The translations under genes were made by a program, and so were the position numbers. The notes beneath the pieces were generated by a model. The model saw only the letters and a program-made list of their open reading frames with translations, ran no database searches and was not told the DNA's origin. A stretch of DNA of 64,000 bases from a virus (lineage: Duplodnaviria > Heunggongvirae > Uroviricota > Caudoviricetes), in the IMG/VR virus record IMGVR_UViG_2778261352_000001, positions 1,199 to 65,198 of that record, one strand, 5' to 3'. Below are positions 28,880 through 49,426 of the stretch, piece by piece (the stretch's first letter is position 1; each line of letters begins with the position of its first letter).

Positions 28880-28885
28880 AGTATG

Positions 28886-31027: not shown

Positions 31028-31043
31028 GTGTCACCATAAATAT

Positions 31044-31060
31044 CAAATAATTAGAGCAAT
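31044..31060. promoter_or_regulatory. C1 operator-like site (14/17)
   Basis: CAAATAATTAGAGCAAT. Confidence 0.5.
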
Positions 31061-31077
31061 CAAGCGCAAATGAACGG

Positions 31078-32109
31078 CTAATCGCCATCTTCCAGCAGGC
31101 GCACCATTGCCCCCGTTTCACTATCCAGATTACGGATATAGTTCATGACAATATTTACGTTGGTCCAGCCACCAGCTTGCATGATCTCCGGTATTGAAAC
31201 TCCGGCGCGGGCCATATCTCGCGCGGCTCCGACACGGGCACTGTGTCCAGACCAAGCCAGGTACCTCTGGCCAGAGTCATCCTTAGCCCCGTAAATCAAT
31301 CGGTGAGTTGCTTCAAAAATCCCTTCCAGGGCGCGAGTTGATAGCTGGCTGGTGGATGATGGCGAGGCAACACCATTTTTTCTGACCCGGCAAAACAAGT
31401 AGTTATTCGGATCATCAGCCACACCAGAGACAGAAATCCATCGCTCGACCAGTTTAGTTACCCCCAGGCTAAGCGCCTTCTCTACACCTGCGGTGCTAAC
31501 CAGCGTTTTCGTTCTGCCAATATGGATTAACATTCTCCCACCGTCAGTACGTGAGATATCTTTAACCCTGATCCTGGCAATTTCGGCTATACGTAACAGG
31601 GTGTTATAAGCAATCCCCAGAAATGCCAGATTACGTATATCCTGGCAGCGATCGCTATTTTCCATGAGTGAACGAACCTGGTCGAAATCAGTGCGTTCGA
31701 ACGCTAGTGCCTGTTTTGCACGTTCACCGGCATCAACGTTTTCTTTTCGGATCCGCCGCATGACCAGTGAAACAGCATTGCTGTCACTTGGTCGTGGCAG
31801 CCCGGACCGACGATGAAGCATGTTTAGCTGGCCCAAATGTTGCTGGATAGTTTTTACTGCCAGACCGCGCGCCTGAAGATATAGAAGATAATCGCGAACA
31901 TCTTCAGGTTCTGCGGGAAACCATTTCCGGTTATTCAACTTGCACCATGCCGCCCATGACCGGCAAACGGACAGAAGCATTTTCCAGGTATGCTCAGAAA
32001 ACGCCTGGCGATCCCTGAACATGTCCATCAGGTTCTTGCGAACCTCATCACTCGTTGCATCGACCGGTAATGCAGGCAAATTTTGGTGTACGGTCAGTAA
32101 ATTGGACAT
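31078..32109 (-). CDS. cre: Cre tyrosine recombinase
   Basis: 343 aa, MSNLLTVHQNLPALPVDATSDEVRKNL.. near-identical to canonical Cre. Confidence 0.98.
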   Translation of the reverse strand: MSNLLTVHQNLPALPVDATSDEVRKNLMDMFRDRQAFSEHTWKMLLSVCRSWAAWCKLNNRKWFPAEPEDVRDYLLYLQARGLAVKTIQQHLGQLNMLHRRSGLPRPSDSNAVSLVMRRIRKENVDAGERAKQALAFERTDFDQVRSLMENSDRCQDIRNLAFLGIAYNTLLRIAEIARIRVKDISRTDGGRMLIHIGRTKTLVSTAGVEKALSLGVTKLVERWISVSGVADDPNNYLFCRVRKNGVASPSSTSQLSTRALEGIFEATHRLIYGAKDDSGQRYLAWSGHSARVGAARDMARAGVSIPEIMQAGGWTNVNIVMNYIRNLDSETGAMVRLLEDGD

Positions 32110-32527
32110 TTAACACTCAGATAATGGTTTTAAGTAAAGTGTACAGGATCGGCTCTGCCTTTACCTGTTTATGATTCTCGTCATAGAAACGCCAGCGACC
32201 GCGCGTGCGTTCTATTTTCTCTTCACCGCGCGATAATGACAGTTGACAACTATCACGATCAAACCCTTTTGCCCGCCAGTAACCACGGTTTTTCTCAAGC
32301 TCAAGATGAGTGGACACTTTAGCAGCTGAATATCCCATTTTTCACCTCTGATTGATTGGTGGTGCTAAGTGCGCTACGCGAAATCTGGAGCACTAACACT
32401 GCCAACATTTCGCAGATTTTACGTAGCGCAACCTTGATCAAATGATCAAGTGATCACTATTTGACCTGATAAGGTATTGAACTGTATGGATTTACAGGTA
32501 AATTGATCATGTTCAATAACCCTTAAG

Positions 32528-32561
32528 ATAACTTCGTATAATGTATGCTATACGAAGTTAT
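32528..32561. other. loxP site
   Basis: Exact ATAACTTCGTATA-ATGTATGC-TATACGAAGTTAT. Confidence 0.98.
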
Positions 32562-32604
32562 TAGGTCCGAAGAGGAGTTTACGTCCAGCTGCGCATAAAA
32601 ATCA

Positions 32605-32621
32605 AGAATTATTAGAGCAAT
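32605..32621. promoter_or_regulatory. C1 operator (15/17, reverse orientation)
   Basis: AGAATTATTAGAGCAAT. Confidence 0.6.
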
Positions 32622-32687
32622 AAATTTTGAGAGAAAAATCCCACTCCACCAGCCAAAAACTGGATTGTTTTTCATAGTTGTTTGACA

Positions 32688-32704
32688 ATTGCTCTAATAA
32701 ATTA
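32688..32704. promoter_or_regulatory. C1 operator (16/17)
   Basis: ATTGCTCTAATAAATTA upstream of coi/c1. Confidence 0.7.
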
Positions 32705-32942
32705 TAGTTTTGCCGCCGTTTCGTAATACGACTTTGGATTCACTATTTAATGTGTCTTCAGCGTTGTAGAGCGGCTCAGAAGGAAATGAGCAAACAGGGA
32801 AACCTTATACAACGGCATTACAGCTATGCATTGCTCATCTTACACACAGCGCAATGTTGTTAGATTACCCCAGCATGGATCATGGGTGAAACAGTAGGTC
32901 AGAGCTTCAGGCTCTGTGTTGTCAATACAGTGAGGCATAATT

Positions 32943-33152
32943 ATGGCTTTCATTCCACCAACCATCGACGACGTTAGACATTGCTCTAACGCTTTATCTG
33001 TAGACCCCGCCGAAACCGACGCTGCCCGCGCCATTGCTGAACACTACTCAAAGATATCCAATCAGGAGTACCGCATCACCCAAGACGACCTGGATGATCT
33101 CACTGACACAATCGAATATCTCATGGCCACTAACCAGCCAGACTCACAATAA
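32943..33152 (+). CDS. coi: Coi, C1 inactivator
   Basis: 69 aa, immediately upstream of c1. Confidence 0.75.
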   Translation: MAFIPPTIDDVRHCSNALSVDPAETDAARAIAEHYSKISNQEYRITQDDLDDLTDTIEYLMATNQPDSQ

Positions 33153-33262
33153 ATGCACTAATAAATCTATTATTTTCGTTGGATCCTTCTATAATGGTGG
33201 CCAACAACTCCCAGTGTAATCCGCTGTGAGTTGTTGGCCATGTCAATTCTGGAGGAGGATCA

Positions 33263-34114
33263 ATGATAAATTATGTCTACGGCGAACAACTGTACCAGGA
33301 GTTCGTCAGCTTCAGGGATCTCTTTCTAAAAAAAGCTGTTGCACGCGCCCAACACGTTGATGCCGCCAGCGACGGTCGTCCTGTACGCCCGGTTGTCGTT
33401 CTGCCGTTTAAAGAAACGGACAGCATTCAGGCTGAAATTGATAAATGGACTTTAATGGCGCGGGAACTGGAACAGTACCCAGACCTCAATATCCCAAAGA
33501 CTATTTTATATCCAGTGCCTAACATCCTTCGCGGTGTGCGTAAGGTTACGACTTATCAGACAGAAGCTGTGAACAGCGTCAACATGACCGCTGGCCGCAT
33601 TATTCATCTGATTGATAAGGACATTCGCATCCAAAAAAGCGCGGGGATCAATGAGCACAGTGCGAAATACATAGAGAACCTGGAAGCAACAAAAGAGCTA
33701 ATGAAGCAGTACCCGGAGGATGAAAAATTCCGTATGCGCGTACACGGCTTTAGCGAAACAATGCTGCGCGTCCATTACATTTCCAGTAGCCCTAACTACA
33801 ATGATGGTAAATCAGTTAGTTACCATGTGCCGCTATGTGGTGTGTTTATCTGCGATGAAACTCTCCGTGATGGAATCATCATCAACGGTGAATTCGAGAA
33901 AGCAAAATTTAGCCTTTATGACTCTATAGAACCGATCATCTGCGACCGCTGGCCGCAGGCAAAAATATATCGCCTGGCAGATATTGAAAATGTAAAAAAA
34001 CAAATTGCCATCACTCGCGAAGAGAAAAAGGTCAAATCAGCCGCATCAGTTACGCGCAGCCGTAAAACTAAGAAGGGGCAGCCAGTAAACGACAACCCCG
34101 AAAGCGCGCAATAG
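33263..34114 (+). CDS. c1: C1 repressor of lysogeny
   Basis: 283 aa, P1 C1 size and context; cognate operators throughout window. Confidence 0.85.
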   Translation: MINYVYGEQLYQEFVSFRDLFLKKAVARAQHVDAASDGRPVRPVVVLPFKETDSIQAEIDKWTLMARELEQYPDLNIPKTILYPVPNILRGVRKVTTYQTEAVNSVNMTAGRIIHLIDKDIRIQKSAGINEHSAKYIENLEATKELMKQYPEDEKFRMRVHGFSETMLRVHYISSSPNYNDGKSVSYHVPLCGVFICDETLRDGIIINGEFEKAKFSLYDSIEPIICDRWPQAKIYRLADIENVKKQIAITREEKKVKSAASVTRSRKTKKGQPVNDNPESAQ

Positions 34115-34138
34115 TTTCTATCCGGCATGGTCAATGAG

Positions 34139-35623
34139 TTATTCATTAAGCCATGCCAGAGCTTCATCAACCTGCGCTTCGTCTTCGACGCTAAGCACTT
34201 CATCCTGGGGAACATAATCCGCCAGCATAGCGAAACAATATGTATCCCAATGGTCTGGTGAGTGCAGGTTGAGTTTTTTCTTCATATCCTCCTTACTCAT
34301 CACCTTCCATTGACCTGCGGAGTTAATCCCTACAGGGATTTTCGACGCTTCCTCAATAGTTTCATTACCCTTATCCAGTCTCATACGACCAGATTTTACG
34401 GCCTCTGCGGCTTGAACGTTGGCATAAGCACGTTTATCAAAGTACAGGCTCTTATCTTCACGGCTATGCATCTTTTTACCCCAGCGTATACGCTGTACGG
34501 TAATACCATAATACTCGTACATCAGATCCGCCGTTGCTTTACCCAGGCCATCGCCGTCTATCGCTATGGTGATATTTGGGAATCGCTCAGGATTACATTC
34601 TGCGAAAATTTTGGCGGCAAGCTGCGTTTCTGTAACGTCTGTGTATTTCAGCATTCGATAGTTGATTACACGGCGTTTATTTCGCTGGCCGGACACCATC
34701 ATGATATTGATAACGGACTTATCCCGTCCCGTACCACCAGCAACGTCCACACATGCAAGCCAGCCCCATCCTTTGGCAATCTTGACTTTCCGCCGCGTTG
34801 CACGTTCAACCTCATCACGTCCAAGAAGGAAGCCATCCTGTGATTTAGGAAATAGGCCGCGTACCTTAATCATGTACATAGGGTTATCACGCCCGCCGTA
34901 CTCCGCCAGCTTCATTTTGATAAATGCTGGCGTTACCAGCGGTGATTCCTCACTGTTAAGCGTGATCGCCGTATAAACGCCATCAGGGTTACCAGGACGC
35001 TTGGCCAGTTTATGGTGAGTATCGTAGAAATACCCGCTTGGGCGTGTAGGCTGTGACAGCAATAAGATGCGGTTATCCAGTCCGGTAAGAGCACCGGTGA
35101 TGATACCGAAAGCTCTATCACTGACACCGGAGGCTTCATCGATAATATACAGAAGATGATCTGCGTGTTCACCTGCGAGAGCTTCTTCACTTCCCAGACG
35201 AAAGCCCTTCGGTACTACAGTCCATACACCTTTACCAGTAACTTCATAAAAAGCGGTTTCTGTCAGAACAAAATAATCAGCAAGCCATGGAAAACGGCTG
35301 GTGGCCGTAGCCCAGTTTATCTTGATGTACTTGAATATACCGGTCATTACCTGCTGAATTTTGTTCGCAACGATAATGGCACGGGCACCGGGATACATGA
35401 TTATGAACAACATGATCATGATAGAAGTCATGTCTGATTTCCCGGTACCGTGACCAGACGAAACAGATGTCTTGCTACCCTGTTCCTGCACAGACTCAAT
35501 AATCAGATCCTGCTGCCAGGTAGGTGTTTTGCCGAACAAAACATCAGCGGCAGCAATCCAGTCATAACGATATAGCGCCACCAGCTCGCGCCAACGTGGA
35601 TCCGTTACGCAACTTCTGGCCAT
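34139..35623 (-). CDS. pacB: terminase large subunit PacB
   Basis: 494 aa, Walker A SGHGTGKS, Walker [11 protein letters not shown]. Confidence 0.85.
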
Positions 35624-36816
35624 TAATCATCATCCCCGTATAGCTTGCGGGTAACTTCTTCGTCTTCCTCCTCGTCTTCGTCCAGGTCTTGTTCCAGCCA
35701 TGGGTCGTTTGATACACCTTCAGTATCAACATCTCCATAACCGCCTGTATCAACGATATCGGCGATTTCTTCCCTACGTTGCTCAATCCACAATGCAGCA
35801 TCGGCGCGGCGGTTGGCGGCCCGTTCTCGCGCAACTTTGTCCAGATCTTCAAGAGAAGGGCCACCGACGGCAGTTTGCCTTTCCTCATCATCGGCATTTG
35901 TCTTAGGAGCACGCAGATCGGCTTTGATTTGCTCCAGCATCAGGGGCGGCACTTTCCCTCCATGCGCCTCGATGAATTCAGCCGCTTCCAGCACTGACCA
36001 GTTATTTTCACGCTTTCGTTCGTATGCCAGCTTAACAATGCCAGCTTGCCCCATAGATAAAGCGTGCTTTTCCGCCTCCCGGCTTTCTTTTCGATAGTTA
36101 TTGCGGATGCTGTAAATGGTGTTGATCAGGCTGCTTATCTGCGCGGAACAGCTGTTTAGCATGCTCGCGATACGGTATTCAGGCGGAGTACCTTCATCAT
36201 CGTCTTTTTGCTGATCGCGCATTTCCTGCACCAAGCGAATACACGTATCCCGGGCGTTCTCCAGCATAAGGAGATGAGAAAGAGACTTTTCCAGAAGAGT
36301 GGTTTCCAGAACATCAGCTCCGGAACGACGCAACATAGCGCGCGCGGCCTTCCGCGCTTCAACGTTATCTATCAGGTAATCGCCCGCTTCGAATTCAAAG
36401 CGTTCACCATCATCATCCAGGGTGTCGCGTTCCAGGCGATCACGTAAGGTCCGGTGGGCGCGGGTGATCACGTCATGATCATCTGAACGATCATTTATGC
36501 GCTTATTTTGGCGCTTCGCATTCCCGACTGCGGCACTGACAACGGCATTAACCCTTTGTTTTTCCGCTATTTCAGCCGCAATGTGATCACATGTATGTTG
36601 ATCATTAGAGTGATCAATGATCATGCTTTTTAGTGGCTTCCTGACTGGCTTATTTGGCTTGCGGCTGTCCGCTGTCCTGGTGTCTTCTTTGAAGGCACGG
36701 AGATAACGACGTGCAGTATTAGGGTTAAGATTAAACTCGGCGGCATACTGTGCGATGGTGTAACCACCATCTCGCGCCAGGCGAGCAAAATTCTTCTTGT
36801 GATCGTCCCAGGTCAC
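35623..36816 (-). CDS. pacA: terminase small subunit PacA
   Basis: 397 aa, contains pac hexamer clusters within coding sequence. Confidence 0.85.
36438..36623. other. pac packaging site (TGATCA/G hexamer clusters, 3 + 4, with GATC Dam sites)
   Basis: TGATCA at 36465, 36476, CGATCA 36489; TGATCA at 36584, 36599, 36611, 36618. Confidence 0.7.
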
Positions 36817-36901
36817 TTATGCTTCCTTTCGTAAAAACTCTTTTTGACGCGAGGGTAACGAAAGTCACATGTCAAAAGGCCCGGAACGGGCAAGCAATCA
36901 A

Positions 36902-37354
36902 TCAGATACGTGCGGATGTGGCATTACCGTAATGACGGTGCTGACGGGCCACCTTATTGAAAAGTTGACGCGCCATTACCCAAGGCTGGTGCTCCCGGCG
37001 TTCCTTTTCGTCCTGCGTCATATAGAGTTCGTTCTGGAGTTTTTCATCAAACCGGCGCGGTGCGCGGCTGCGGCGAAAGAATTCAGGGTTCAGAGAGTGG
37101 ATCTGAAATCTACGTGGGCGTGTACTATCGTCAATCAAAACAGACGAATACTTAGACACAGCGATAGCCTTTAAGCGCAGATAAACGTCGCGCTTATCGA
37201 CATCCAGATGCGGGTATTCCTTTTCAAGGATTGCTGCGAGTTCTTTCGCTGATAGAAGAGATTTAGTGCGGATCATGTAATCCGCAATCTCATACGATGT
37301 TATTCGTGAGTGATTTATTTCCATGAAGTGGCGTCCCTGCCAGTTAAGTAACAT
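36902..37354 (-). CDS. late promoter activator (Lpa-like, by position and size)
   Basis: 150 aa, immediately upstream of pacA. Confidence 0.5.
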   Translation of the reverse strand: MLLNWQGRHFMEINHSRITSYEIADYMIRTKSLLSAKELAAILEKEYPHLDVDKRDVYLRLKAIAVSKYSSVLIDDSTRPRRFQIHSLNPEFFRRSRAPRRFDEKLQNELYMTQDEKERREHQPWVMARQLFNKVARQHRHYGNATSARI

Positions 37355-37424
37355 CCTGTCACCTACTGATTAGCCCATGTCAACTAATCAACGTGGAATA
37401 TAATACCCTCGATTAAAGAAATAG

Positions 37425-37441
37425 CAACACATTAGAGCAAT
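37425..37441. promoter_or_regulatory. weak C1 operator-like site (13/17)
   Basis: CAACACATTAGAGCAAT upstream of lpa-like gene. Confidence 0.3.
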
Positions 37442-37442
37442 T

Positions 37443-38486
37443 TTATCTAACGCTCGACGAATGACTTGTGATAGCGCCGACTCCAAGCGCGTAATCAAAG
37501 AACAATCGTTGATGCATCGCCAGCCTGCCGTGCGTTTTCTCCCAATTATCGCGGTCACGCTCAATATCACGCTGGCATGACTGGCACAGAGGAATTGCGT
37601 AAATGTCATGCGCGCATAATCGACTATGACGAACGATATAAGGCGTAATGTGAGCGCCAGCTCCCGCAGCTCCACACCCACAGCATGGACGGGAAGCAAC
37701 AAAGTCCATGTACTCAGGTAATTTTAGCGATTGCAGTTTTGGTATTTTGAAATGCGCCATGCCAGGGTCGGAGTCAACATCCACAGGGCATACTTTTGCT
37801 CGCATCGGCGCGGCGCGTTCTTCCATCATCTGAACATATGCTGTAGCGCGATCGTCATACGGGCGAATATCCGCCTCTTTCAGAGGCCCGCTATCCTGCG
37901 TTGCAGTCTTAATCTTATTTATTGATATACGGCAGACTTCTTCCGGCATCAGGTGCATCATGTCGCGCATGAAAGCCCACCAGCACAGTTCCTGAATACT
38001 TAAATCATGGCCATCTGAAAGCCCCATTTCCTGACGGGCGACATCCAGTATCCAGTTAACGCGATTATTATGCAGCGTTTCTTTCAGCTCATTAAAACCA
38101 CGCATCCGGTAATGGTTATCGTGATGCCAGCACAACAACACCGCGCTATTGTCTCGTTCTGCGTGGACAATATGGTTGTCACACCAGCTACGATCTGCGG
38201 CCTGGCATTGTCCCTCTTTCCTGCGCAACCACGCCACCAGCGCGTCAATTCCACCAATACGGCGAAACAGTTCATCGCTGTTAAAAAACGGCTGCAACGC
38301 CTCATTTGTTGCCATGGTTTGCTCGGTAACAACGAGGCCGTCTTCCATGTGCTCGATTAACTCACGCGGCACCGGCTCCATAATAAATTTACGGCCAGCC
38401 TCCACCAGCTTTCTGACCTCCTGATCCACTTTGAACGTGGCGAGGCCAAGCTCTTTCTGTACAAAGGGAGTAATTACGGCTTTCAC
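37443..38486 (-). CDS. hypothetical protein (PdcB position)
   Basis: 347 aa Cys-rich ORF downstream of doc. Confidence 0.45.
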
Positions 38487-38513
38487 ATCACACCTTTCAT
38501 CACTGATTGGGCT

Positions 38514-38714
38514 TTATCTGCTGCCCGGCATTCTCTGTTTAAGCACAACCATTTCCTGACGGCATAACACAGCAATAGCGGTCCTGGCACCAATTTGCTT
38601 ACCAACCAGGTATTGCTTTACCTTGCGGCGACTCACGCCATCAAGAAGCATCTTTAACGCTTCACGGGACAATTTGTTGTATTTACGTGCCATTAATCTA
38701 CTCCGCGGAACCAT
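38514..38714 (-). CDS. small basic protein (PdcA position)
   Basis: 66 aa. Confidence 0.3.
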
Positions 38715-39078
38715 ACAATCTACGTAACGTGTCGGCGACAGAAGATACAGATATCTCTCCGGTCGCAGCCCCTACGGTAAGGTCTGCCAGTTCAGGTGAA
38801 TCAAATACCTGCACCCCGTTACGGCGTAGAAATAACAGCGCACTGTTTAGCGCGGTACGCTTATTGGCATCATTGAATATATGCCCTCTCGCTGTAGCCA
38901 CCAGGTAGGTGGCGGAGACTTCGAAAAGGTCGGTGATCTCTTCGTAGGCAACTCTGGCCTGAACTCTCCCGATAATGGCCTCTGCCCTACCCGGATCTGA
39001 CATTCCCGGCAGGCCGCCGTAGCGGTTTATATTCGCATCATGAAGCGCAATAAGTTCTTCCGGTGATATATGCCTCAT
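38698..39078 (-). CDS. doc: Doc toxin (Fic-fold kinase)
   Basis: 126 aa [17 protein letters not shown]..; overlaps phd stop. Confidence 0.95.
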
Positions 39079-39299
39079 TATCGGTTAACCAGTTCCTTGT
39101 TGGTGGAGTCCAGGGTGTCAAACAGGGATGCAAATTCAGCATCCAGCGCCGCTTTTTTGTAGGCTTCGAAAGTAGCCTTGCTGACAATTACTGCTGGCTC
39201 ACGGCCTCTGCGGGTGATTTCAACCTCTTCCCCGGCTTCAACATTGTTGAGCACTTCAGAAAGGTTGCCGCGCGCGGTACGGAAGTTAATGGATTGCAT
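39078..39299 (-). CDS. phd: Phd antitoxin
   Basis: 73 aa [40 protein letters not shown].. Confidence 0.9.
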
Positions 39300-39371
39300 A
39301 AACACCTCGTGTACTCGTTATGTGTACACAATTATAAACCTCACAGGCATAAAGCACCAGCTCTTTGCAGC

Positions 39372-39761
39372 TTAAATAACCGGACAATCATCAAACTCCC
39401 CACTTCGGGCATCATTGATGACATGAGTGATCACACCAAAAACAGCATTACTGCCCGTGCATCCATCGTCATCTACTGGTAATGCCTCTTTCTTCCCGGT
39501 GCTTAAATCCTCCAGGTGCTGGCGCGGATACTTTCGGTATCTCTTTATGCGATATTCACCCTCCATAGCGCACACAAGCAGAGAACCATCAACCGGAGTA
39601 AGCGAGGAATCAACCACCAGCAAAGCACCCTGCAATATTCCCTCACGGTGATGGCTATCAGCTGCCCGCATGAAGTAGGTTGCTGATGGATGCCTGATTA
39701 GTTGCTGATCAAGAGAAATTCGGCTTTCAACATAATCCGCCGCAGGAGAAGGGAAGCCCAT
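39372..39761 (-). CDS. humD: HumD (UmuD'-like)
   Basis: 129 aa, LexA/UmuD C-terminal peptidase-fold similarity; LexA box upstream. Confidence 0.75.
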   Translation of the reverse strand: MGFPSPAADYVESRISLDQQLIRHPSATYFMRAADSHHREGILQGALLVVDSSLTPVDGSLLVCAMEGEYRIKRYRKYPRQHLEDLSTGKKEALPVDDDGCTGSNAVFGVITHVINDARSGEFDDCPVI

Positions 39762-39782
39762 AGCGTTTTCACCTCAACAATA

Positions 39783-39798
39783 CTGTTCATTTATACAG
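39783..39798. promoter_or_regulatory. LexA (SOS) box CTGT-N8-ACAG
   Basis: CTGTTCATTTATACAG between humD and divergent gene. Confidence 0.7.
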
Positions 39799-39935
39799 TA
39801 TACATTAAAGAGACACCTTTGGTGCAAACGCGTTACGTACATCAACCACCGCTGATGATTTTGTGCTCTTTGCTACTATTCATCACCAACGGATCAGCGT
39901 AACCTCGTTGCCAATCAGTTAATAAGGAATTAGCT

Positions 39936-40520
39936 ATGCCTAATCGCATTCCTCTCGATCCTGTATTGCCCAAAAATTTTGACTGCACTCCTAACGAGAA
40001 ACGCTCTAAAACTCAGCTGGACGCCTGGTGGGACCATCCCTATGGGGTTACAGAACATGACGGGAAAATTGTTGTTTATTGTCTGAATGGTGGCGCGTGG
40101 GACCGTCCATCCGTGCTTGGTTTGGCAAATAACTATGATGAAGCCTGTGAACTTGCCGAAAGACAGCAGGCTAGATGGGTGAAAACACGTTCTGAACCGA
40201 CATTCATGTTTTCAAAAGAACCGCCATTTATACTGGCGAGGATGCCGCAGCGACCGGATCATCAACAAGAAATTGTTGCTGAATTTTCCTCAAGGGATGA
40301 GATGAATCTCTTCTCATTAAAGCAGGAAGAAAGGGATCGCGTCGAAGTGTCTCCAACTCTCGACCACAACCAGATGAACCTGGCCCAACTCGCCTGGTAC
40401 AGCAAAGAATTAGAGATGTCTATTGCCCGGCTTGAAAACGAAAAAGCCGCTATCCAAGCCCAGCACGAAGTAGTTCTGAACCGGATTAGAGAAATGCAAA
40501 ACGATAACAGGGGATTTTGA
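39936..40520 (+). CDS. hypothetical protein (SOS-box-proximal)
   Basis: 194 aa, C-terminal coiled coil. Confidence 0.45.
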   Translation: MPNRIPLDPVLPKNFDCTPNEKRSKTQLDAWWDHPYGVTEHDGKIVVYCLNGGAWDRPSVLGLANNYDEACELAERQQARWVKTRSEPTFMFSKEPPFILARMPQRPDHQQEIVAEFSSRDEMNLFSLKQEERDRVEVSPTLDHNQMNLAQLAWYSKELEMSIARLENEKAAIQAQHEVVLNRIREMQNDNRGF

Positions 40521-40883
40521 ATGGCTAAAATCGAGTACCATCGCGATCGCGGTAATTACCTGGAAATATACGATCATGAATCTCTTAACGATATCAACGA
40601 TGCGTTATATGAATACTGTGAAAAAATGAGCATCACAGATACACCTGATGCATTTGTCGAGCTACCGGTATATCTCCGCGACATCTATGCAATACGGACG
40701 CCGCCCGTATCGGTAATTCACATTGGCTATGTCCGCCTGTCCATCGAAGAAGATGAAGATCGTTATATCGTGCGCCACTATACATTGGACAGAAAAGAGC
40801 TTCCCAATGAATGGAACATGAGTAATTTCTACAACGGTGAATATGGCTTAAAACCCGCTAAGAATGGCGCGGGCATTGCGTAA
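40521..40883 (+). CDS. hypothetical protein
   Basis: 120 aa, abuts upstream gene. Confidence 0.45.
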   Translation: MAKIEYHRDRGNYLEIYDHESLNDINDALYEYCEKMSITDTPDAFVELPVYLRDIYAIRTPPVSVIHIGYVRLSIEEDEDRYIVRHYTLDRKELPNEWNMSNFYNGEYGLKPAKNGAGIA

Positions 40884-40894
40884 TAGCCTAACAA

Positions 40895-41134
40895 CTATTC
40901 TGTTTTCTGATATGCCGGATCGCTCCCTTTTGGCAACTGGAGGCTTAACTGCCTGTAGTGCCGTAGCCGTTCCATGAAATAGGCGCGCAGGTTTTCCGGT
41001 TGCTCACGGGCCACCTGCTCTGCAATCACCGGTATATTCAGTCGTTCTTTGTAAGCAACGCCGCTGGCGGCAAGGTCTACGTTCACCTTGTCTCGCTCTT
41101 CCTGGCTTTTAGCTGCAATATTGCAGTTGCTCAT
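40895..41134 (-). CDS. hypothetical protein
   Basis: 79 aa. Confidence 0.35.
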
Positions 41135-41136
41135 GT

Positions 41137-41409
41137 TTAAAGCTCACATTTCCAGATGGTATTCTGAACACCCGAACCGGGAGCGAGATGGGGATTAGCG
41201 TTCGCGCTATGCTGATATACGGCTTTAGACTTCCCATATTGCTGACAGGCTTTATCTGCGGTTTTTTGCAAGCTATCAAGGCCATACCAACCATCTGACT
41301 GTATGCTTACCTTTTCACCGTCGTTGTATTGCACCATTGCACACCCAGATATAGCCAGTATCGCGCCGACAATAACGCTTTTCCATAAAACTCTATACAA
41401 CATAGACAA
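41137..41409 (-). CDS. small lipoprotein
   Basis: Signal peptide with lipobox LAISGC. Confidence 0.5.
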
Positions 41410-41448
41410 AAATCCCCTCTGTGAATTGAGGGGATTTTAGCATGGTGA

Positions 41449-41736
41449 TCAGAGATCAGCTTTATGCAGAATTTTATCCACCAGCGATGTGATTTTTTCT
41501 GCCAGGTCATCATTACTTACCCAATCCTGGCGGGCAGCCAGAACGGGCGACAAAGTTAATATTAACTCTCGCCGTAATGATGCGTTCCGTGGTGCTAGTG
41601 GTGGTTTAAGCCCCTCGCTCCCTTGTATTTCTGGGGTATGCGGCTGATAGCCATTAATCATCCTTTTTTTCTCCATTTTCGGTGGGCGCGGACGCGGGAG
41701 AATCATGATTCCTTTCTCTTCCTGCATACTGGGCAT
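41449..41736 (-). CDS. hypothetical protein
   Basis: 95 aa. Confidence 0.35.
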   Translation of the reverse strand: MPSMQEEKGIMILPRPRPPKMEKKRMINGYQPHTPEIQGSEGLKPPLAPRNASLRRELILTLSPVLAARQDWVSNDDLAEKITSLVDKILHKADL

Positions 41737-42011
41737 GTGTTCTCTGTGAAATATGGGAAACTATTATCCAGCTCATCTACCCACTGTTTATGGTCGAAGC
41801 AGAAAAATATCTCCCACGGCATTCCATATTCTTCCATCCATAGGCGGATCTGCATTTCTATTGGAATCGGCGGTATTGCAGACACCATATCAACAGGATA
41901 ACAGTTCAGACGACGTTCCAGTTCTTCTACTCTCTTCTGGAGATGAAATATCCGATCCAGATGCACACGCCGCTCCCGTGCCATTTTAAAATAAAGCTCG
42001 CCGGTCATCAT
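41703..42011 (-). CDS. hypothetical Cys-motif protein (paralog A)
   Basis: C-terminal ..PWEIFFCFDHKQWVDELDNSFPYF..CPVC. Confidence 0.4.
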   Translation of the reverse strand: MMTGELYFKMARERRVHLDRIFHLQKRVEELERRLNCYPVDMVSAIPPIPIEMQIRLWMEEYGMPWEIFFCFDHKQWVDELDNSFPYFTENTCPVCRKRKES

Positions 42012-42376
42012 TAACTCCTACATTCAGGGCAAGAGTTCCCTTCCGCAAAATAGGGGAAACTGCTATCAAGCTCATCACACCATCTGCGATGGTCGTAGCA
42101 CCAAAACGCCTCCCACGGTGCACGGAAATACTTCATCCACCAGGACACTCGATCAGGTATATCTGCTGGTGGCAGCTCTTCTGGCAATAATTTGCCTGAT
42201 AATTCCCTTTCCGCCCGCGCCAGCATTCCTTTTAGACTCGCATTCTCTTTTTCAAGAATCTCTATGCGCGCCTGTAACTCAGCTTTCGTTGGCATGGTCC
42301 GCCTCATGCTTTTCAGCCACCAGCGGCAATAAAGCCCTGGCCATCTTATGAACCAATAGTGCATCAATAATGCCAA
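42011..42376 (-). CDS. hypothetical Cys-motif protein (paralog B)
   Basis: C-terminal ..PWEAFWCYDHRRWCDELDSSFPYF..CPEC. Confidence 0.4.
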   Translation of the reverse strand: MALLMHYWFIRWPGLYCRWWLKSMRRTMPTKAELQARIEILEKENASLKGMLARAERELSGKLLPEELPPADIPDRVSWWMKYFRAPWEAFWCYDHRRWCDELDSSFPYFAEGNSCPECRS

Positions 42377-42959
42377 GCGTATGCCCCGGCTTAATGTTTA
42401 ATGCCGCCTCAAGGTGACACCTTTCCAAGCCACTTTTCTCGGCTTGTTTATGATGATCTGGCGTAATAACGTCGCCCAAAACTCGGCTAATTCTTTCTCG
42501 TAATTGCTGGGTGCCAGCACACTTGATCGCTGTATCGTGGAGACGGTTAACCAGTTCGCGATAAACATGCGGCTTAATGCGGATACGTTCACCGGTGACG
42601 CCCTTTCCTGGCGCTGGCACCGAACTATCCGGAATATCCGGATAGTTGCCAGCCTCGTAAGCTACCCGCAGCCAGTGCATGAATGTTTCAGTGGACACAC
42701 AACCACAGTCCACATCGATTTTTCCGCGTTGCTGTTCCAGCCACTGCTCAAAATTCAATCTACACGTATTACTTTCATGTTGCTCTTTTTGTCTCAAGGC
42801 CAGTACCTGTTGGGCCAGTTCCAGAACGATACCGGGTGACGCTAACCTCTCAAATTCCAATAAATAGTTTGTGTCAGGATGACAAGTAGCCTCGCCTGCA
42901 AAAAATACCAATTGCTGTAAGTATGCTGTCGTTAGAGTAGTCATTTCTTTTTGCGCCAT
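42279..42959 (-). CDS. hypothetical protein
   Basis: 226 aa. Confidence 0.4.
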   Translation of the reverse strand: MAQKEMTTLTTAYLQQLVFFAGEATCHPDTNYLLEFERLASPGIVLELAQQVLALRQKEQHESNTCRLNFEQWLEQQRGKIDVDCGCVSTETFMHWLRVAYEAGNYPDIPDSSVPAPGKGVTGERIRIKPHVYRELVNRLHDTAIKCAGTQQLRERISRVLGDVITPDHHKQAEKSGLERCHLEAALNIKPGHTLGIIDALLVHKMARALLPLVAEKHEADHANES

Positions 42960-43315
42960 TTCTTTTCACATTCCTTAGTCCATTTTTCAATGTTCATTTT
43001 GGCAATATCAGTCATTCCGTCACCCAAGAAATACTTTTTCCGGTATGTCTTGCACTTAAACCACACTACAACAGCCACCAGCCAGAAAATAAAAGGCCAT
43101 ACAGCAATACCAACGACAGCCGCGATAAAGCCCAATATCCATAAATGAAGCTCTCCAACTTCTGTTTCCGGCAATATTCTTAAAGAATTAAACAGCAGGC
43201 TGAACGAATGGTCGTATGCATTGGCAGTATAAGACATGCAATCCATATAATTAAAGTCATAGCCTGCGGCTGCCGCCCATAATGGGCGGTCAAGAAAATG
43301 TTTTAGTGTCATCAT
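42941..43315 (-). CDS. hypothetical membrane protein
   Basis: 124 aa, two hydrophobic helices, Lys-rich C-terminus. Confidence 0.4.
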   Translation of the reverse strand: MMTLKHFLDRPLWAAAAGYDFNYMDCMSYTANAYDHSFSLLFNSLRILPETEVGELHLWILGFIAAVVGIAVWPFIFWLVAVVVWFKCKTYRKKYFLGDGMTDIAKMNIEKWTKECEKKWRKKK

Positions 43316-43321
43316 ATAAAT

Positions 43322-43711
43322 TTAAGGTTCAGACCAGTTATCTTCAATAGCAATGCTTAATCTTTGTAGCCATTCTGCTAATTTCAGCATTGCTTCTCTT
43401 TCGCTTAAACCACGAGGAAAATCATCAAGCGAAATTGTTGGCTTGAAGCCCCCGTAATTATCCATTTCAACAGTCAGATTTTGCTCCAGCACGGTATTCC
43501 TTACGCGGCTATTGTGCCGAAGCAAATATACTGAACGTGATTTATTGGTTTTATGGTCAAACTGATATTCGGTAAGTATCATCTGGCTTTTGCCATGACT
43601 ATTACCTCTCCACATACTTACCTCACTTAATAAAACAACTCCATACGTAGTTGATGATTTTTTCCCACGTAATATAAATCTGCACTCCGGCAGTAAAACC
43701 AAAGCCAACAA
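43322..43711 (-). CDS. hypothetical protein
   Basis: 129 aa. Confidence 0.35.
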   Translation of the reverse strand: MLALVLLPECRFILRGKKSSTTYGVVLLSEVSMWRGNSHGKSQMILTEYQFDHKTNKSRSVYLLRHNSRVRNTVLEQNLTVEMDNYGGFKPTISLDDFPRGLSEREAMLKLAEWLQRLSIAIEDNWSEP

Positions 43712-43793
43712 TTGCTGAAAAAATCAAAACATTTACTTTTGACATTATAAATTTTCTCTCGGTGTCGTAGGTGATAGCACCATAATTGATAAT

Positions 43794-44045
43794 TTAGTGA
43801 GTTAGCAGCTCCATTTTTTGGATGATTTCCGCATGAGCATCATCGTTATCAACACTTAACTCGTTTAATGCCTCTCGCACCACATCAACTTCTTCTGGTT
43901 GGAAGAAATCATCTCGGTAGTCACCAAATAGAACCGAAACAAGCCTGCCACCAGCAACATCAAGATTGGCGCTAACAGGTGGCTCTTTACCATCCTCAAA
44001 TTCGACTACAAAAGTTATTTTTCCCATCGTTACCACCAGCGACAA
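43794..44045 (-). CDS. hypothetical protein
   Basis: 83 aa. Confidence 0.35.
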   Translation of the reverse strand: MSLVVTMGKITFVVEFEDGKEPPVSANLDVAGGRLVSVLFGDYRDDFFQPEEVDVVREALNELSVDNDDAHAEIIQKMELLTH

Positions 44046-44109
44046 ATTGAATACAAACCCAGTGCTGCCGCCATCACAATTCCTACCGTGGTGAATGCTT
44101 CAGGCCAGC

Positions 44110-45381
44110 TCATTGATTCACCTCCTGCGGCGGTTCTGGTAGCGGCATCCAGTGTGACGGTTTCCACGACGCACCAGGAATTATCCACCCATCATTAGCG
44201 TCAGGATGCCCCGGGATGTAAGTAGCCCATTTCATTCGCCAGTCACCTTTCCTGTCAAACTCCACGGCAACAAGAACGGCTGTTTTGGTATTCGGCATTC
44301 GCTCACTACAGCTTATCCAACCATCCGGAGTTACCGGAGAGTTGCCAGCTAGTCTACGCAAAACAGCCTTAACAGCCTCAATACGGTCATCATCGCAACT
44401 TTCCAGCGTATCTATGCGATCGAGCATGATGATGGCGTTATCAATATCAGGATTGCCGGTCCACTCATTACCGCGATTGGATTCGGCAGCCTGGTTGCCA
44501 GATGCTGGTTGATTGTCGGCATGGCTATAGCTAACAGCACGGCAGGCATCCTCAACGCCTTTAACTGCATCTGCGCAGTAGTTATAGCGATTGCATTCCA
44601 CTAATTTCCGTTTGAGTTTTTCAATTGCCTGCGCGACATCAGCCTGTATTACCGGAACTGGCGGAACGGCTGTTTGCTCTCGAACGTCATTAGTCGCTAT
44701 CGGTTCTGCTGCCAACTGACTGGCATATTTGTTAATGGTAACGATAAGCTCTTGCTCAGCCTCATCCAGACAATCATCGATACCTCGCCTGTCACCGTCA
44801 AAATCATCGAAATCGGCACGAATCTTGGCAACCTTCAGGATTGCGGACAACACCTCACTAGGAATTACCGGATAGTTGGTTGACGTTTCCGCGATTTCCC
44901 GAAAATTATTGGTTGACGAATTCTTGTTTTCCCGAAAGTTTCCGGACTGAAGCATGGCGTCGCTCCGCTCTATACCATCCAGCGCGATTCGCAGTGCCTG
45001 AATTGTGGTAGAGCTATCGTTTGGGGCTATTCCATATCGCTCGAATACAGCTAAATGGTTGCGCATAATCTCAGGCGTAAGCTCTTTGTAAGCATAAGCA
45101 AGAGGCTCTGATGCATTATCCGGCACAACCGACGCAGGCGCGGCAGCATAAACAGGAATAACGTCCGCTTGCTCTTTATTGCTTTCATCCGTTAAAGCCC
45201 AGAATAATTTCCCGGCCGGATGTTTGAAAATATAAGCAACTGGTTCTGCTTCCAGTGATGCCAGCGCAATTTTGTATACTTCCAGATCCATTTGTGCAGT
45301 TACTAAATCAGGATAACGATCCATAACCGTTATATTGCGCTTAATCATCTCTATTAATTGTTCTTTAGTAAAAGTGGTCAT
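44110..45381 (-). CDS. phage protein with DUF551-like C-terminal domain
   Basis: C-terminal ..SHWMPLPEPP motif; N-terminus paralogous to 45814..46200. Confidence 0.5.
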   Translation of the reverse strand: MTTFTKEQLIEMIKRNITVMDRYPDLVTAQMDLEVYKIALASLEAEPVAYIFKHPAGKLFWALTDESNKEQADVIPVYAAAPASVVPDNASEPLAYAYKELTPEIMRNHLAVFERYGIAPNDSSTTIQALRIALDGIERSDAMLQSGNFRENKNSSTNNFREIAETSTNYPVIPSEVLSAILKVAKIRADFDDFDGDRRGIDDCLDEAEQELIVTINKYASQLAAEPIATNDVREQTAVPPVPVIQADVAQAIEKLKRKLVECNRYNYCADAVKGVEDACRAVSYSHADNQPASGNQAAESNRGNEWTGNPDIDNAIIMLDRIDTLESCDDDRIEAVKAVLRRLAGNSPVTPDGWISCSERMPNTKTAVLVAVEFDRKGDWRMKWATYIPGHPDANDGWIIPGASWKPSHWMPLPEPPQEVNQ

Positions 45382-45391
45382 TCGTTATGCC

Positions 45392-45631
45392 TCAATACAC
45401 AAAATCTGTTTTAAATTCATGGTTACATTCTGGACAGCATGTTTCGTAACCTTTTATTTCTTCACATGCCTGTTTTGCTCCAGAAAATTCCCAGAAATCT
45501 GGATCACAAAGCAGATCGAAATTGTGACCGCATTTTGGACATTCGGTATCAAGTGACAGATTCCAGTAAGCAGTGGTGTTTTTATCCATATCAGTCTCCT
45601 TTACCCGCTGCTTTCTCCTGCTCTTTAGCAA
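45392..45631 (-). CDS. zinc-ribbon small protein
   Basis: CPKCG..CCPEC. Confidence 0.4.
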   Translation of the reverse strand: MLKSRRKQRVKETDMDKNTTAYWNLSLDTECPKCGHNFDLLCDPDFWEFSGAKQACEEIKGYETCCPECNHEFKTDFVY

Positions 45632-45854
45632 GCCGCTCCGCTTCTCTGAAATCCCAATCCACTCGATGTGCTATATCAATTGCAGAACGCACGGTCCGTT
45701 CAATTAGCGTGTCCAGATTATCAATTGTCATTGCCATATCTGGATTGCGAGATAAAATCTCCGCCCTCTGAATCTGCCAGTTGTTGCAGGTTTCAAGTAA
45801 TGAGTTAGCCATATCACTTTCCTTTCCCATGAAGCATAGCCGCGCGGCAGGCAT
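45591..45854 (-). CDS. hypothetical protein
   Basis: 87 aa. Confidence 0.3.
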   Translation of the reverse strand: MPAARLCFMGKESDMANSLLETCNNWQIQRAEILSRNPDMAMTIDNLDTLIERTVRSAIDIAHRVDWDFREAERLAKEQEKAAGKGD

Positions 45855-46200
45855 TCCAGCCTCTTACCTCTGCAATAGCGGCAACAGCATCAACCGCGTA
45901 CATGCTAAGAGGATTAGGCATTGGTTTTTCTTCCGGTACTACTGGAACGGGGGGAGCGGCGTAGACCTCAATAATTCCATTATCAATAGGCCACTCCCCA
46001 TCCTTGATGTAGTCACTTGTGCCGTCAACTTGCTGTTCTGCAATGTGGAATGCACCTATTGGTTTTGCTTCCAGCGATGCCAGAGCAATTCGTGCCAGTT
46101 CTTCCGCTTCTTCTGCTGGCAGTACAACGTTGCTACCAGGTCCGTATGTTTCGCGCCACTGCTGGATTGTCAGCAGGCGTTCTTTGGTAATAGTGATCAT
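45814..46200 (-). CDS. hypothetical protein (N-terminal paralog of the DUF551 protein)
   Basis: ALASLEA motif shared with 44110..45381. Confidence 0.4.
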   Translation of the reverse strand: MITITKERLLTIQQWRETYGPGSNVVLPAEEAEELARIALASLEAKPIGAFHIAEQQVDGTSDYIKDGEWPIDNGIIEVYAAPPVPVVPEEKPMPNPLSMYAVDAVAAIAEVRGWNACRAAMLHGKGK

Positions 46201-46325
46201 GCTGCGTTTCCTTCTTTCTTATTAACAATTACACCGTCATATATTTCATTAAGGTGCCCTCTCAACTCCATGCGCCTTAATGCAGATAACATGTAATCGC
46301 ATTCAACCTGCTTATTTCCAGTAAA

Positions 46326-46398
46326 TGGCTTATCGTCAGGATTAACGGACTCGAACCGCTGACATCCTGCTTACAAGGCAGGCGCTCTACCAACTGAG
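46326..46398 (-). tRNA. tRNA-Thr-like (anticodon UGU), acceptor stem not pairing
   Basis: D arm GCTCAGTTGGTAGAGC, anticodon arm CCTGC-CTTGTAA-GCAGG, T arm AGCGG-TTCGAGT-CCGTT; 5' GCCGGTT does not pair with 3' AATCCTG. Confidence 0.45.
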
Positions 46399-46400
46399 CT

Positions 46401-46476
46401 AAACCGGCATTGGCGATGGTGGATGGATTTGAACCATCGACCCGTTGATTAACAGTCAACCGCTCTAACCACTGAG
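46401..46476 (-). tRNA. tRNA-Asn (anticodon GUU)
   Basis: Manual cloverleaf: acceptor GATGGTG/CACCATC, anticodon loop CTGTTAA, T loop TTCAAAT, encoded CCA. Confidence 0.85.
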
Positions 46477-47154
46477 CTACACCATCACTTGCCGGGTACG
46501 TCTCCGGCGAGGGCTTCCACCTCCGTATGCTTTTCGGCGCACCGCGCCCTGACTGCAATTCGGTAACAGGGGATGCATAACCCTGGCTTCCAGCGTGATT
46601 AGCGCCTTCAGCATGACGGGATATACCCGTAAATTCGTGGAACTGTACCCAAAGTGCTGTTAAGCACCGCTGTTACGCTGAAAAGAAGACGCAACAGGAA
46701 AGGACGCTGACCAACAGATGGCCCCTTCTCGTTCATCTGGTTAATCACACCAGCGCCCTTACCTGTTGTGCCTCCCCGTTCCCTAATACACAGACGGGGA
46801 CACTCTGTGGTCGATTTTTTGACGGGGGACGACTCATACCCCGTGGCGTCTGGCTTCTTAGGCCGCTACCATCATCAGATCATCGTTTGCATTTACTTTA
46901 ATGGTCAGTTTCTAAACCGCCGCAAAGTCGCTAACCATGACGAAAACCCTGAAAAAAACGCCCACCCGAAGATGGGCAAACTGGAAGCTCGTAACGCACT
47001 TCGGTGTTGCCACTTAGGCGCATGGTCAACCTGGCAACTCGGCGTCATGAGGGGGAAGGAGTCACTACCCCGCCATACTTGCCGCCGCGCCTGTCGCGGC
47101 TAACAGCTAAATCGCTCTATAAATCACGATTCATTGAGGCGATATTACACTAAT

Positions 47155-47171
47155 AAATTTATTAGAGCAAT
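47155..47171. promoter_or_regulatory. C1 operator, exact 17/17 consensus (reverse orientation)
   Basis: AAATTTATTAGAGCAAT overlapping dmt stop codon. Confidence 0.75.
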
Positions 47172-49426
47172 ATCGCCATAACGTCATGAGCAACACCACG
47201 AGTGTCTCCCTTACAAGACACAGAACGTCTGGCAAAGAGAGGTTCCACTCTGAAGCCTCTGTCCTGATAAAGTTCTCTGATGTTTGGCGCGCCACTGTTA
47301 GTAATGAGTACCTTTGCACCTCGGCGATGAGCATCCGTCAACAGAGACACCAGGCGTTTTTGCTCTTCAAACTTAAAGTCATGACCGGAATAGTTCGTGA
47401 ATCCCTCTGTATTTGGAAGCGGTTCATACGGCGGATCACAGAAGATGACATCTCCTTCTCCGGCAGCTTCAATCACCGCAGCAAAATCACCACATACAAA
47501 CTCAGAACGCCCTTCCGCACCGAGGAAGGCTTCCATCTCCTGTAATGGGAAATACGGAGTTTTATACTTCCCATAACCGACATTGAACTCACCGGCCTGG
47601 TTGTAACGCGTCAATCCGTTAAAACAATGTCGGTTCAGGAACAAAAACGCCGCTGCGCGATGTAAATCATCATAGACTTGTTTGTTAAACGCATTCCGTA
47701 CTGCCAGGTATCCTTCCTGTGTGTTGTAGTCCTGGAAAAACCGATGCGCCAGTGTGATAAGTGAATGCGCCTCGCGTTGCAGAGTCTTGTAAAAGTTAAT
47801 CAGGTCAGCATTCACATCATTTAGCAGATTTTCCTGGTATCCGGCATTCGTGAAGACAGCTCCGCCACCGACAAAAGGTTCGATCAGGCGCTTCCCTTCT
47901 GGCAAATAGCGAAAGATTTGTTCCAGAACACCAAATTTTCCACCAGCCCATTTGAATATGGACCGTTCGAATTCTGCCGCTGGTTTAACTTTTCGCTCTT
48001 TTGTTTCACTTCCTTCTTTCTGCCGACATACGGCCTTAGTAATTCGATCGCCAATCCAGCGCATTACTGGTATTGCCATACTATTGCCGATCGCTTTGTA
48101 ACGCGGTCCGTCAGCTGCAAGCATCGCGGCCTCTTCTTCGCTTAAATCTGGATAGTGATTGTGCAGATATGCCAGTTCATCTGAATTAACTTTTTTACGC
48201 TTTTCCGTAGGGATCAACGTATGCCCATCAGGAAAACCTTGAAGTCTCTCACATTCGACAGGGGTAAGACGGCGGACAGCTACTTCTTCGTTTCTTACTT
48301 CATAGCAAACAGCAGTTGGATTTTGAGCCATTAGAGATGGTGAAGTATTCTTAGTTGCTGCATGTTGTGTACCACTCATACGCTCAGGAAAAGCCAATGT
48401 AACAAGATGCTCATGGCTTTCTTGCTCACGCGCCCGCAATGTACCATGCCCTTCTGACCAAAAACCTGCTCCAGTGCTGCTAAAAACGGCAAGGTCAGTG
48501 GCATCTTTAAAGTCTCTTGCCTTTACTGTCGATGCGGTTTCATCGTCAATATATTCCCCAAATGCCGCCATCCTGAAACCGTTTACGGCTTTCGTCGATT
48601 TCATATCGGGGGACATGCCAGCGTGTAGGCATGGATTTAGGCTTTCGCCACTGATTGCAGCGCCATTTGCAGTAATGGCGGAAGCGATTTCCTTCTTTTT
48701 TCGGCTCGGCGCAATATTCCGGCGCACGCCTTCGAACTCAAAAAGTACCGTTGCGGGATCGAGGTCTGTTCGAGCACTTGCGACAACAAACACGCGTCGG
48801 CGTCGTTGTGCCACTCCGAAGTATTGGGCATCAAGGATTCTCCAGGCCACCTTTCGCTGCGGTCCATAAATACAACCACACTGCGGCCACTTTGGAGCAT
48901 GGCAACCGGTTTTGACATCCCACCGCCAGAACGTGTTACTTTTTCGTGATTCAGGTCGATCACCAGGTTCGAATGGCGCATCTTCTCCAGCCAATCCGGC
49001 AAGGAAACATCCGAACGCGTTGTCTGCTGATGACAGGACTCCTGGGACATTTTCCCAGACGATAACTGTCGGTTTGAGGAAGGACTCAGACCGTTTGTCG
49101 TCAATTGCATTTGCAAGCTCCACATACTTCAAAGTTAGCGCGCCGCGTTCATCATCAAGCCCACCACGTAAGCCCGCGATACTGAATGCCTGACAAGGCG
49201 TACCCCCGACGAGCACATCAGGGGCTTCAATTTCTCCGGCCTGGACTTTTTGGGCGAGTTTTGTCATGTCGCCAAGGTTCGCGACATGGGGCCAGCGGTG
49301 CGCAAGAACGGCAGATGGAAAAGACTCGATTTCAGCAAACCACGCCGGACGCATACCCAACGGTTCCCAGGCAATACTCGCGGCTTCAATTCCACTGCAA
49401 ACAGATCCATAGCACAGCTCTTTCAC
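47162..49426 (-). CDS. dmt: bifunctional DNA methyltransferase (C5-cytosine plus Dam-like N6-adenine)
   Basis: 754 aa; [12 protein letters not shown] and ENV motifs N-terminal, DPPY motif C-terminal. Confidence 0.85.

Follow-up and report, generated by a model that had tools for sequence, protein, structure and literature searches.

A 3'-truncated P1 tRNA-Thr gene at a probable microhomology-mediated deletion junction in a probably defective P1-type phage-plasmid

Two tRNA elements lie side by side on the minus strand of the window, as we term the whole 64,000-nt stretch of viral DNA analyzed here, and ARAGORN calls them as tRNA-Asn(gtt) at 46411..46486 and tRNA-Thr(tgt) at 46335..46407 (Table 1). 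Read directly from the sequence, the Thr element begins with G1 at 46408 and reaches its position-73 equivalent at 46336; the preliminary description had placed it at 46326 to 46398, exactly 10 nt too low, and had not stated the strand. Its account of the element as tRNA-Thr-like, with a UGU anticodon, is borne out by both ARAGORN and Rfam, and the canonical tRNA-Asn that it reported 2 nt away is separated from G1 by the dinucleotide AU (46410-46409), which follows the CCA of the tRNA-Asn. The tRNA-Asn carries a single C-to-U change in the D loop relative to P1 and P7 (window position 46457; AGUGGUU versus AGCGGUU) and is otherwise intact.

Table 1. Features at and around the truncated tRNA-Thr gene
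Feature	Coordinates	Strand	Evidence
C1-controlled operator Oban and promoter P1ban	47142..47171	-	30/30 identity to P1 68667-68696; Obanab / P1ban of NC_005856
P1 "dicF-like region"	46942-47042	-	98% conserved; between Pban and the tRNAs
tRNA-Asn(GUU), intact, with encoded CCA; P1 trnA ortholog	46411..46486	-	ARAGORN; Rfam 76.1 bits, model positions 1-71; 98.7% identical to P1 trnA
2-nt spacer AU, tRNA-Asn CCA to tRNA-Thr G1	46409..46410	-	Sequence reading; identical spacer in P1 and P7
Retained trnT nt 1-69 of tRNA-Thr(UGU)	46340..46408	-	69/69 identical to P1; Rfam local match, 4-67
Putative deletion junction, 5-bp microhomology TAATC (tRNA nt 65-69)	46340..46344	-	Three-way alignment with both CP099080.1 sites; BLAST segments overlap
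Non-tRNA bases CUGA at tRNA positions 70-73	46336..46339	-	Pair table; sequence from the ea-side parent
Final 48 codons (NPDDKPFTG...NAA), left over from the 3' part of a hypothetical ORF of 171 codons	46200..46343	-	Translation equals the C terminus of the intact NZ_CP071390.1 ORF
First intact gene past the scar, 128 aa	45814..46200	- (same as tRNAs)	ORF list; ~140 nt behind the truncated tRNA
423-aa protein with C-terminal DUF551	44110..45381	-	Pfam PF04448, E value of 4.2e-21; lambdoid "ea"-like variable block

Against Rfam family RF00005, the Thr element scores 54.8 bits (E value of 4.6e-9), far above chance, in a local match restricted to model positions 4 to 67; model positions 1 to 3 and 68 to 71 are missing from the alignment, and the terminal acceptor pairs are unaligned. 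On the minus strand, the element reads GCCGGUU-UA-GCUC...GAGC-G-CCUGC-CUUGUAA-GCAGG-AUGUC-AGCGG-UUCGAGU-CCGUU-AAUCCUG-A-CGA. The D arm, the Thr-anticodon arm, and the T arm with its GTTCGA-type loop are all present (Rfam positions 4 to 67, PP of ~1.0; ARAGORN tgt), as had been described. Four acceptor pairs form (G4-C69, G5.U68, U6-A67, and U7-A66), and three positions are mismatched (G1/G72, C2/U71, and C3/C70), in place of a stem of seven bp. The preliminary description gave the two strands correctly as GCCGGTT and AATCCTG and overstated the case in saying that they cannot pair, which holds for pairs 1 to 3 and not for pairs 4 to 7. It was right that CCA is missing: the tail of the element is ACGA, not ACCA, whereas all relatives encode CCA.

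The preliminary description had named one result that would count against its reading, namely, a covariance model that pairs the acceptor stem at boundaries other than those of the manual fold. This result was not obtained: RF00005 gives no call of the Thr element with a paired terminal stem and aligns positions 4 to 67 only. Moving the boundaries to the ARAGORN frame (46407..46335) makes the stem no better, with 4/7 pairs when counted by hand. Nor did the 400 nt downstream supply a cryptic 3' strand for GCCGGUU, yielding only wobble-rich, chance-level 7-mers at least 31 nt away.

The determinants of bacterial tRNA-Thr are G1-C72, C2-G71, G4-C69, and G5-C68 together with the anticodon (PMC9976931, Table 1). 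Among these threonyl identity elements (ThrRS), the pairs G1-C72 and C2-G71 are gone from the remnant, and G4-C69, G5.U68, and G35 U36 are kept. Folding predictions place the minimum free energy (MFE) of the P1 and P7 tRNA-Thr in the cloverleaf, at -26.1 and -28.7 kcal/mol, respectively. For the window copy, the predicted MFE structure, at -22.7 kcal/mol, is not a cloverleaf: the newly joined AUCCUG forms pairs with CAGGAU, which belongs to the 3' side of the anticodon stem and to the variable loop, and this predicted misfold destroys the anticodon stem. The cloverleaf with a 4-bp acceptor stem is predicted at -16.4 kcal/mol, with an ensemble probability of ~4e-6.

Comparison with the tRNA-Thr gene of P1, which had been proposed as a check, proved decisive. 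Window 46408-46340 is identical to nt 1 to 69 of P1 trnT at 69 of 69 positions, and homology is absent past nt 69. In the alignment, the window equals P1 and P7 through ...GAGTCCGTTAATC, after which P1 continues with GGCACCA, P7 with ...AACCGGCACCA, and the window with CTGACGATAAGCC...; past trnT nt 69, the window thus reads CTGACGA against GGCACCA in P1, and its 3' end is CCTGACGA. What remains of the gene runs from the 5' acceptor strand through the D arm, the anticodon arm, the variable loop, and the T arm to AAUC, the four bases that open the 3' acceptor strand. The setting is also that of P1 trnT (NC_005856 69426-69501; P1 feature names for tRNAs and operators are those of this GenBank annotation) and its P7 ortholog, namely, Oban/P1ban, the dicF-like region, trnA, 2 nt, and trnT. 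By identity and position, then, the element is orthologous to P1 trnT, with homology stopping at nt 69 of a gene whose full length is 76 nt: the last 7 nt of P1 trnT (G70 G71 C72 A73 C74 C75 A76) have given way to unrelated sequence, and the Rfam score falls from 72.9 to 54.8 bits. Intact trnT aligns over model positions 1 to 71 (72.9 bits in P1 and 74.9 bits in P7), and in both phages all 7 bp of its stem are paired, the discriminator is A73, and CCA is encoded. A megablast search with the surrounding 2 kb gives the same picture: homology to P1 and P7 spans window ~46340-47300 and breaks off within the tRNA, and window 45830-46344 aligns at 94 to 95% identity with the ea22/eaA/DUF551 region of lambdoid and Stx phages.

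Three tRNAs (Asn, Thr, and Met/Ile2) have been published as a conserved feature of P1/P7-like plasmids (PMC5786510, PMC9037040). Scanning IMG/VR for the T-arm core of trnT produced 98 complete copies on viral contigs, all of which retain ACCA; 96 of them end in (T/C)CGGCACCA and the other 2 in CCGCACCAA, with a 1-nt deletion, and the 3' end found in the window occurs in none (0/98). Pair 5-68 varies among these copies (G.U, G-C, and, once, A-U) and yet is always paired, which argues that the trnT acceptor stem is under selection in the family. Two IMG/VR trnT loci have a 3' acceptor strand lacking one G (AACCGCACCAA), either a damaged copy or a sequencing error.

In P1, Oban/P1ban is the upstream promoter driving the tRNA cluster. 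The dicF-like region downstream of it contains a terminator-like hairpin at 46978-46959 with a run of T residues, and DicF is not called there at the Rfam gathering score. On the other side of the tRNAs, the 128-aa protein (45814..46200) matches no Pfam family; the homologous region of its gene adjoins DUF551 genes in relatives. Eight ORFs tested in 42279-46200 yielded no integrase or recombinase domain, only DUF551 and subthreshold zinc-motif hits. Both the ORF remnant at the end of the tRNA and the genes of the DUF551 block share the strand of the tRNAs, and transcription from Pban would now run into both.

Local BLAST alignment of the whole window to the complete P1 genome gave a map that is antiparallel and otherwise collinear. 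The window proceeds from P1 94,800-86,842 through hot and a fragment of pmgU (P1 85,528-85,182) into a 3.7-kb non-P1 block (window 42,660-46,340), past which it jumps to P1 69,494-63,333 (trnT, trnA, dmt, hrdC, and onward); sequence from P1 69,496-85,181, which includes trnI, ban, and baseplate and tail genes, is found nowhere in the 64-kb window. The non-P1 block is contiguous in many P1-type plasmids of 93 to 99 kb, within the variable pap-hot region, and in hundreds of P1-type plasmids trnT is intact and lies ~18 to 20 kb from the ea/DUF551 block. We read this block as native to the P1 lineage in question, not foreign.

As stand-ins for the undeleted parent, we used CP099080.1 and pSBF45b (NZ_CP067234.1). 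CP099080.1 contains a trnT-side site, GTTAATC/GGCACCA, and an ea-side site, GGGTAATC/CTGACGATAAG, 19,503 bp apart, and a three-way alignment resolves the window into the left part of the former and the right part of the latter with TAATC common to both; the pentamer occupies positions 6461-6465 and 25964-25968 of the CP099080.1 piece (L008) and is present as a single copy in the window (46344-46340). The sequence spanning the window junction is GTCCGTTAATCCTGACGATAAG, and the BLAST segments on its two sides overlap at 46340-46344 for CP099080.1 and at 46342-46344 for pSBF45b. In pSBF45b, the segments matching window 29,097-46,344 and 46,342-48,173 are collinear on either side of 18,168 bp that are absent from the window and that encode pap-like, PmgS, metallophosphoesterase, VRR-NUC, tail, and baseplate proteins, a dbn homolog, a DnaB/Ban helicase, and an SPFH protein; the equivalent P1 interval is annotated as additionally carrying plp, upl, tciABC, and trnI. 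At the ea-side endpoint, the remnant of 48 codons corresponds to an ORF of 171 codons found whole in NZ_CP071390.1 (piece L005 8058-8573; WP_001229203.1) and adjoins the DUF551 gene in undeleted plasmids. The A at position 73 of the Thr element comes from this ea-side sequence, and its agreement with the discriminator base is a coincidence.

These comparisons make it very probable that P1 trnT was truncated after nt 69 by an illegitimate deletion of ~18 to 20 kb and that the element is a tRNA pseudogene in a decaying P1-type phage-plasmid. The flanks are collinear and co-oriented with those of relatives, and the short repeat is kept once, as at a deletion junction. A single illegitimate recombination event would have joined two 5-bp TAATC sites, one in the 3' acceptor strand of trnT and the other in the 171-codon ORF of the ea/DUF551 block upstream of hot. 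It would have removed the last 7 nt of trnT (GGC-A-CCA), the genes between trnT and ban, tRNA-Ile2/Met(CAU), the ban helicase gene, and dbn, together with baseplate and tail genes 5, 6, 24, 7, 25, and 26, pmgL-S, ppp, and pap. Since both endpoints cut genes and share just 5 bp, we favor a microhomology-mediated deletion over site-specific recombination. The suggestions of a pseudogene and of a recombination scar, offered separately in the preliminary description, turn out to be right jointly, homology to P1 trnT ending after nt 69. In principle, the missing segment could sit in the ~10-kb-equivalent region beyond the 64-kb window.

The 401-bp junction is found in one piece in none of 72,556 plasmids, 50,697 phage records, and 5,426 complete Escherichia coli genomes, and the exact junction 22-mer has no match in 185,579 species-representative genomes, IMG/VR, or JGI metagenome contigs. 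Because none of the collections searched contains the junction, it has no second isolate to corroborate it, and this absence would also fit an artifact of assembly or sequencing, in which two real parts of an intact ~95-kb P1-type plasmid with a complete trnT were wrongly joined. Chimeras formed in vitro likewise favor short microhomologies. However, an overlap of 5 bp is far too short for repeat-driven misassembly, the order and orientation of the flanks are those of relatives and have the geometry of a simple deletion, and the ~16 to 19 kb between the two sites is wholly missing from the rest of the 64-kb window; P1-like elements that have lost tail genes by deletion are, moreover, documented (PMC10879196). 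We give the artifact a small chance. The idea that the scar reflects the use of a tRNA gene as an integration target, at which the preliminary description hinted, fares worse. The 3' ends of tRNA genes are classical integration sites, and the DNA to the left of the junction does resemble the lambdoid/Stx-phage ea22/eaA/DUF551 region, so that one could picture an integrase-mediated insertion of a lambdoid element into the trnT 3' end as attB, with the non-P1 DNA as an island. But the tRNA 3' end is not regenerated, the eight ORFs tested are without an integrase or recombinase domain, and the window has neither a second junction with P1 sequence downstream of trnT nor any further trnT-like sequence; the ea-side breakpoint lies inside an ORF, and the block ordinarily occupies the variable stretch from pap to hot in the hundreds of P1-type plasmids whose trnT is intact. 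The probability of such an insertion is negligible, and the reading is effectively refuted: the scar is better taken as one end of the 18- to 20-kb deletion.

Whether the product is a functional, noncanonical RNA, its acceptor stem repaired or edited or the whole serving as a tRNA-like processing signal, decoy, or regulator, can be judged from its form and its origin. We know of no acceptor-stem repair activity in E. coli. In favor of a working RNA are the perfect D, anticodon, and T arms, the four remaining acceptor pairs, and, from gene order, cotranscription with tRNA-Asn from Pban; in a normal dicistronic tRNA transcript, the upstream tRNA is freed with the help of the RNase P cut that forms the 5' end of the second tRNA. 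Against this, the form is unconserved, being absent from all 98 related copies and from every database searched, and the tRNA-like regulatory RNA envisaged in the preliminary description is accordingly unsupported. The element arose as a by-product of a large deletion, its predicted favored fold disrupts the anticodon stem, the downstream 7-mers that might pair with GCCGGUU do not exceed chance, and it is without the CCA end and two of the ThrRS determinants (determinants in PMC9976931). We regard a functional role of this kind as highly improbable. There is likewise only a slender chance that the truncated tRNA-Thr is not inert and that its intact anticodon and T arms, on an acceptor stub of 4 bp, give a stable tRNA-like fragment, an accidental and newly born tRNA-derived RNA; if they did, the fragment could direct RNase P cleavage and hence the 3' maturation of tRNA-Asn, or it could titrate a factor that binds tRNA, such as ThrRS, a modification enzyme, or an anticodon nuclease.

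Returning to the truncated pseudogene, we think that the trnT remnant is most likely dead, because the ThrRS determinants G1-C72 and C2-G71 and the 3' acceptor end are lost and the favored fold is predicted not to be a cloverleaf. Since Oban/P1ban (47171-47142) and the intact tRNA-Asn lie upstream, transcription from the C1-controlled ban promoter probably still covers the remnant along with the tRNA-Asn. From what is generally known of tRNA maturation and quality control in E. coli, the remnant would not gain an aminoacylatable 3' end and would then be degraded. RNase P may still recognize the remnant, or a stable fragment of it may persist, since four acceptor pairs and all other arms survive; a possible side effect is that RNase P would cut the 5' end of the remnant less efficiently, with altered 3' trimming of the tRNA-Asn as a consequence. 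The appropriate label is a 3'-truncated trnT pseudogene, not a tRNA gene, even though ARAGORN calls a normal tRNA-Thr.

For the element as a whole, the scar marks a deletion derivative of a P1-type phage-plasmid that is without trnI, ban, and essential baseplate and tail genes. The window keeps the repA-par (repA and parAB), phd-doc, and c1 regions, and because baseplate and tail genes and ban are lost and these plasmid regions kept, the plasmid is probably unable to form phage particles; given the loss of trnI, ban, and the baseplate and tail genes, the element probably persists solely in plasmid form. A full-length sok antitoxin RNA of a hok/sok-type module (114.9 bits, Rfam) lies on the minus strand at window 63098-63272, in a ~0.7-kb non-P1 insert between the equivalents of P1 53.4 kb and 51.6 kb, so the element carries hok/sok besides phd-doc. 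In two other places, the window also departs from P1. At 28186-29078, ~0.9 kb replaces P1 3,468-9,752 (the EcoP1 res/mod type III restriction-modification genes and IS5), the equivalent place in pSBF45b holding a SIR2-family gene. At 1331-6710, ~5.4 kb of divergent sequence replaces the tail fibre and invertible C-segment region (P1 ~31.8 to 40.2 kb) and includes a cin-like recombinase gene that is only ~70% identical to P1 cin and has the opposite orientation relative to its flanks.

P1-like phage-plasmids are known to become defective plasmids by gene loss (Pfeifer and Rocha 2024; PMC10879196), and like those defective plasmids, the window has a P1-type backbone that keeps plasmid functions and is without the tail/baseplate block; what sets it apart is its particular junction, for which PLSDB, INPHARED, and the RefSeq E. 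coli genomes gave no match. The case would be a clean, single-event example of this known decay, resolved to a 5-bp microhomology. The junction itself is previously unseen, whereas the kind of event, a gene remnant at a deletion junction, is ordinary and will not surprise specialists. Partial tRNA copies also occur at the att sites of prophages or islands. With these the window shares a cut in the 3' acceptor strand and a cloverleaf core that is still called, but its tRNA is unduplicated, there is no integrase, and the partner is the interior of an ORF joined through a 5-bp microhomology deletion. In mitochondria of amoeboid protists and centipedes, tRNAs are mismatched in the first three acceptor pairs and are fixed by 5' or 3' editing. 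The likeness to such edited organellar tRNAs, with mismatches confined to pairs 1 to 3 as in the window, is superficial: organellar mismatches are conserved and repaired by enzymes, whereas that of the window is a one-off product of truncation in which CCA and the information of positions 70 to 72 are absent.

The tRNA clusters of relatives showed several further features. Phage vB_EcoM-Ro157c2YLVW has an Asn-Tyr-Thr array instead of Asn-Thr (piece L110 3829-4075, minus strand), so that the content of the tRNA cluster varies among punaviruses. Homology is lost in this phage right after tRNA-Asn, and it was considered as a case of recurrent breakage at the tRNA cluster and rejected, as it has the extra tRNA-Tyr and an intact trnT and not a deletion. 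In phage P7, an unannotated long-arm tRNA-like gene lies between trnT and terB (piece L002 1959-2046, minus strand), which ARAGORN calls as tRNA-Ser(tga) and which scores 46.6 bits as Rfam tRNA-Sec, against a gathering score of 47. In P1, a sequence shortly downstream of trnT that overlaps plp on the other strand (piece L001 ~2400-2480, minus strand) has the look of a degenerate tRNA: its ends, GGTAAGGG...CCCTTACC, are complementary, and AGGGTTCGAATCCCT resembles a T arm. A tRNA is called there by neither ARAGORN nor Rfam (E value of <=0.01). Finally, the trnT-ban interval, which is deleted in the window, contains subthreshold matches to the sRNA STnc100 (Rfam, 33 to 43 bits against a gathering score of 47) on the minus strand of P1 (L001 1796-1915), P7 (L002 1734-1849), and Ro157c2YLVW (L110 3002-3121).
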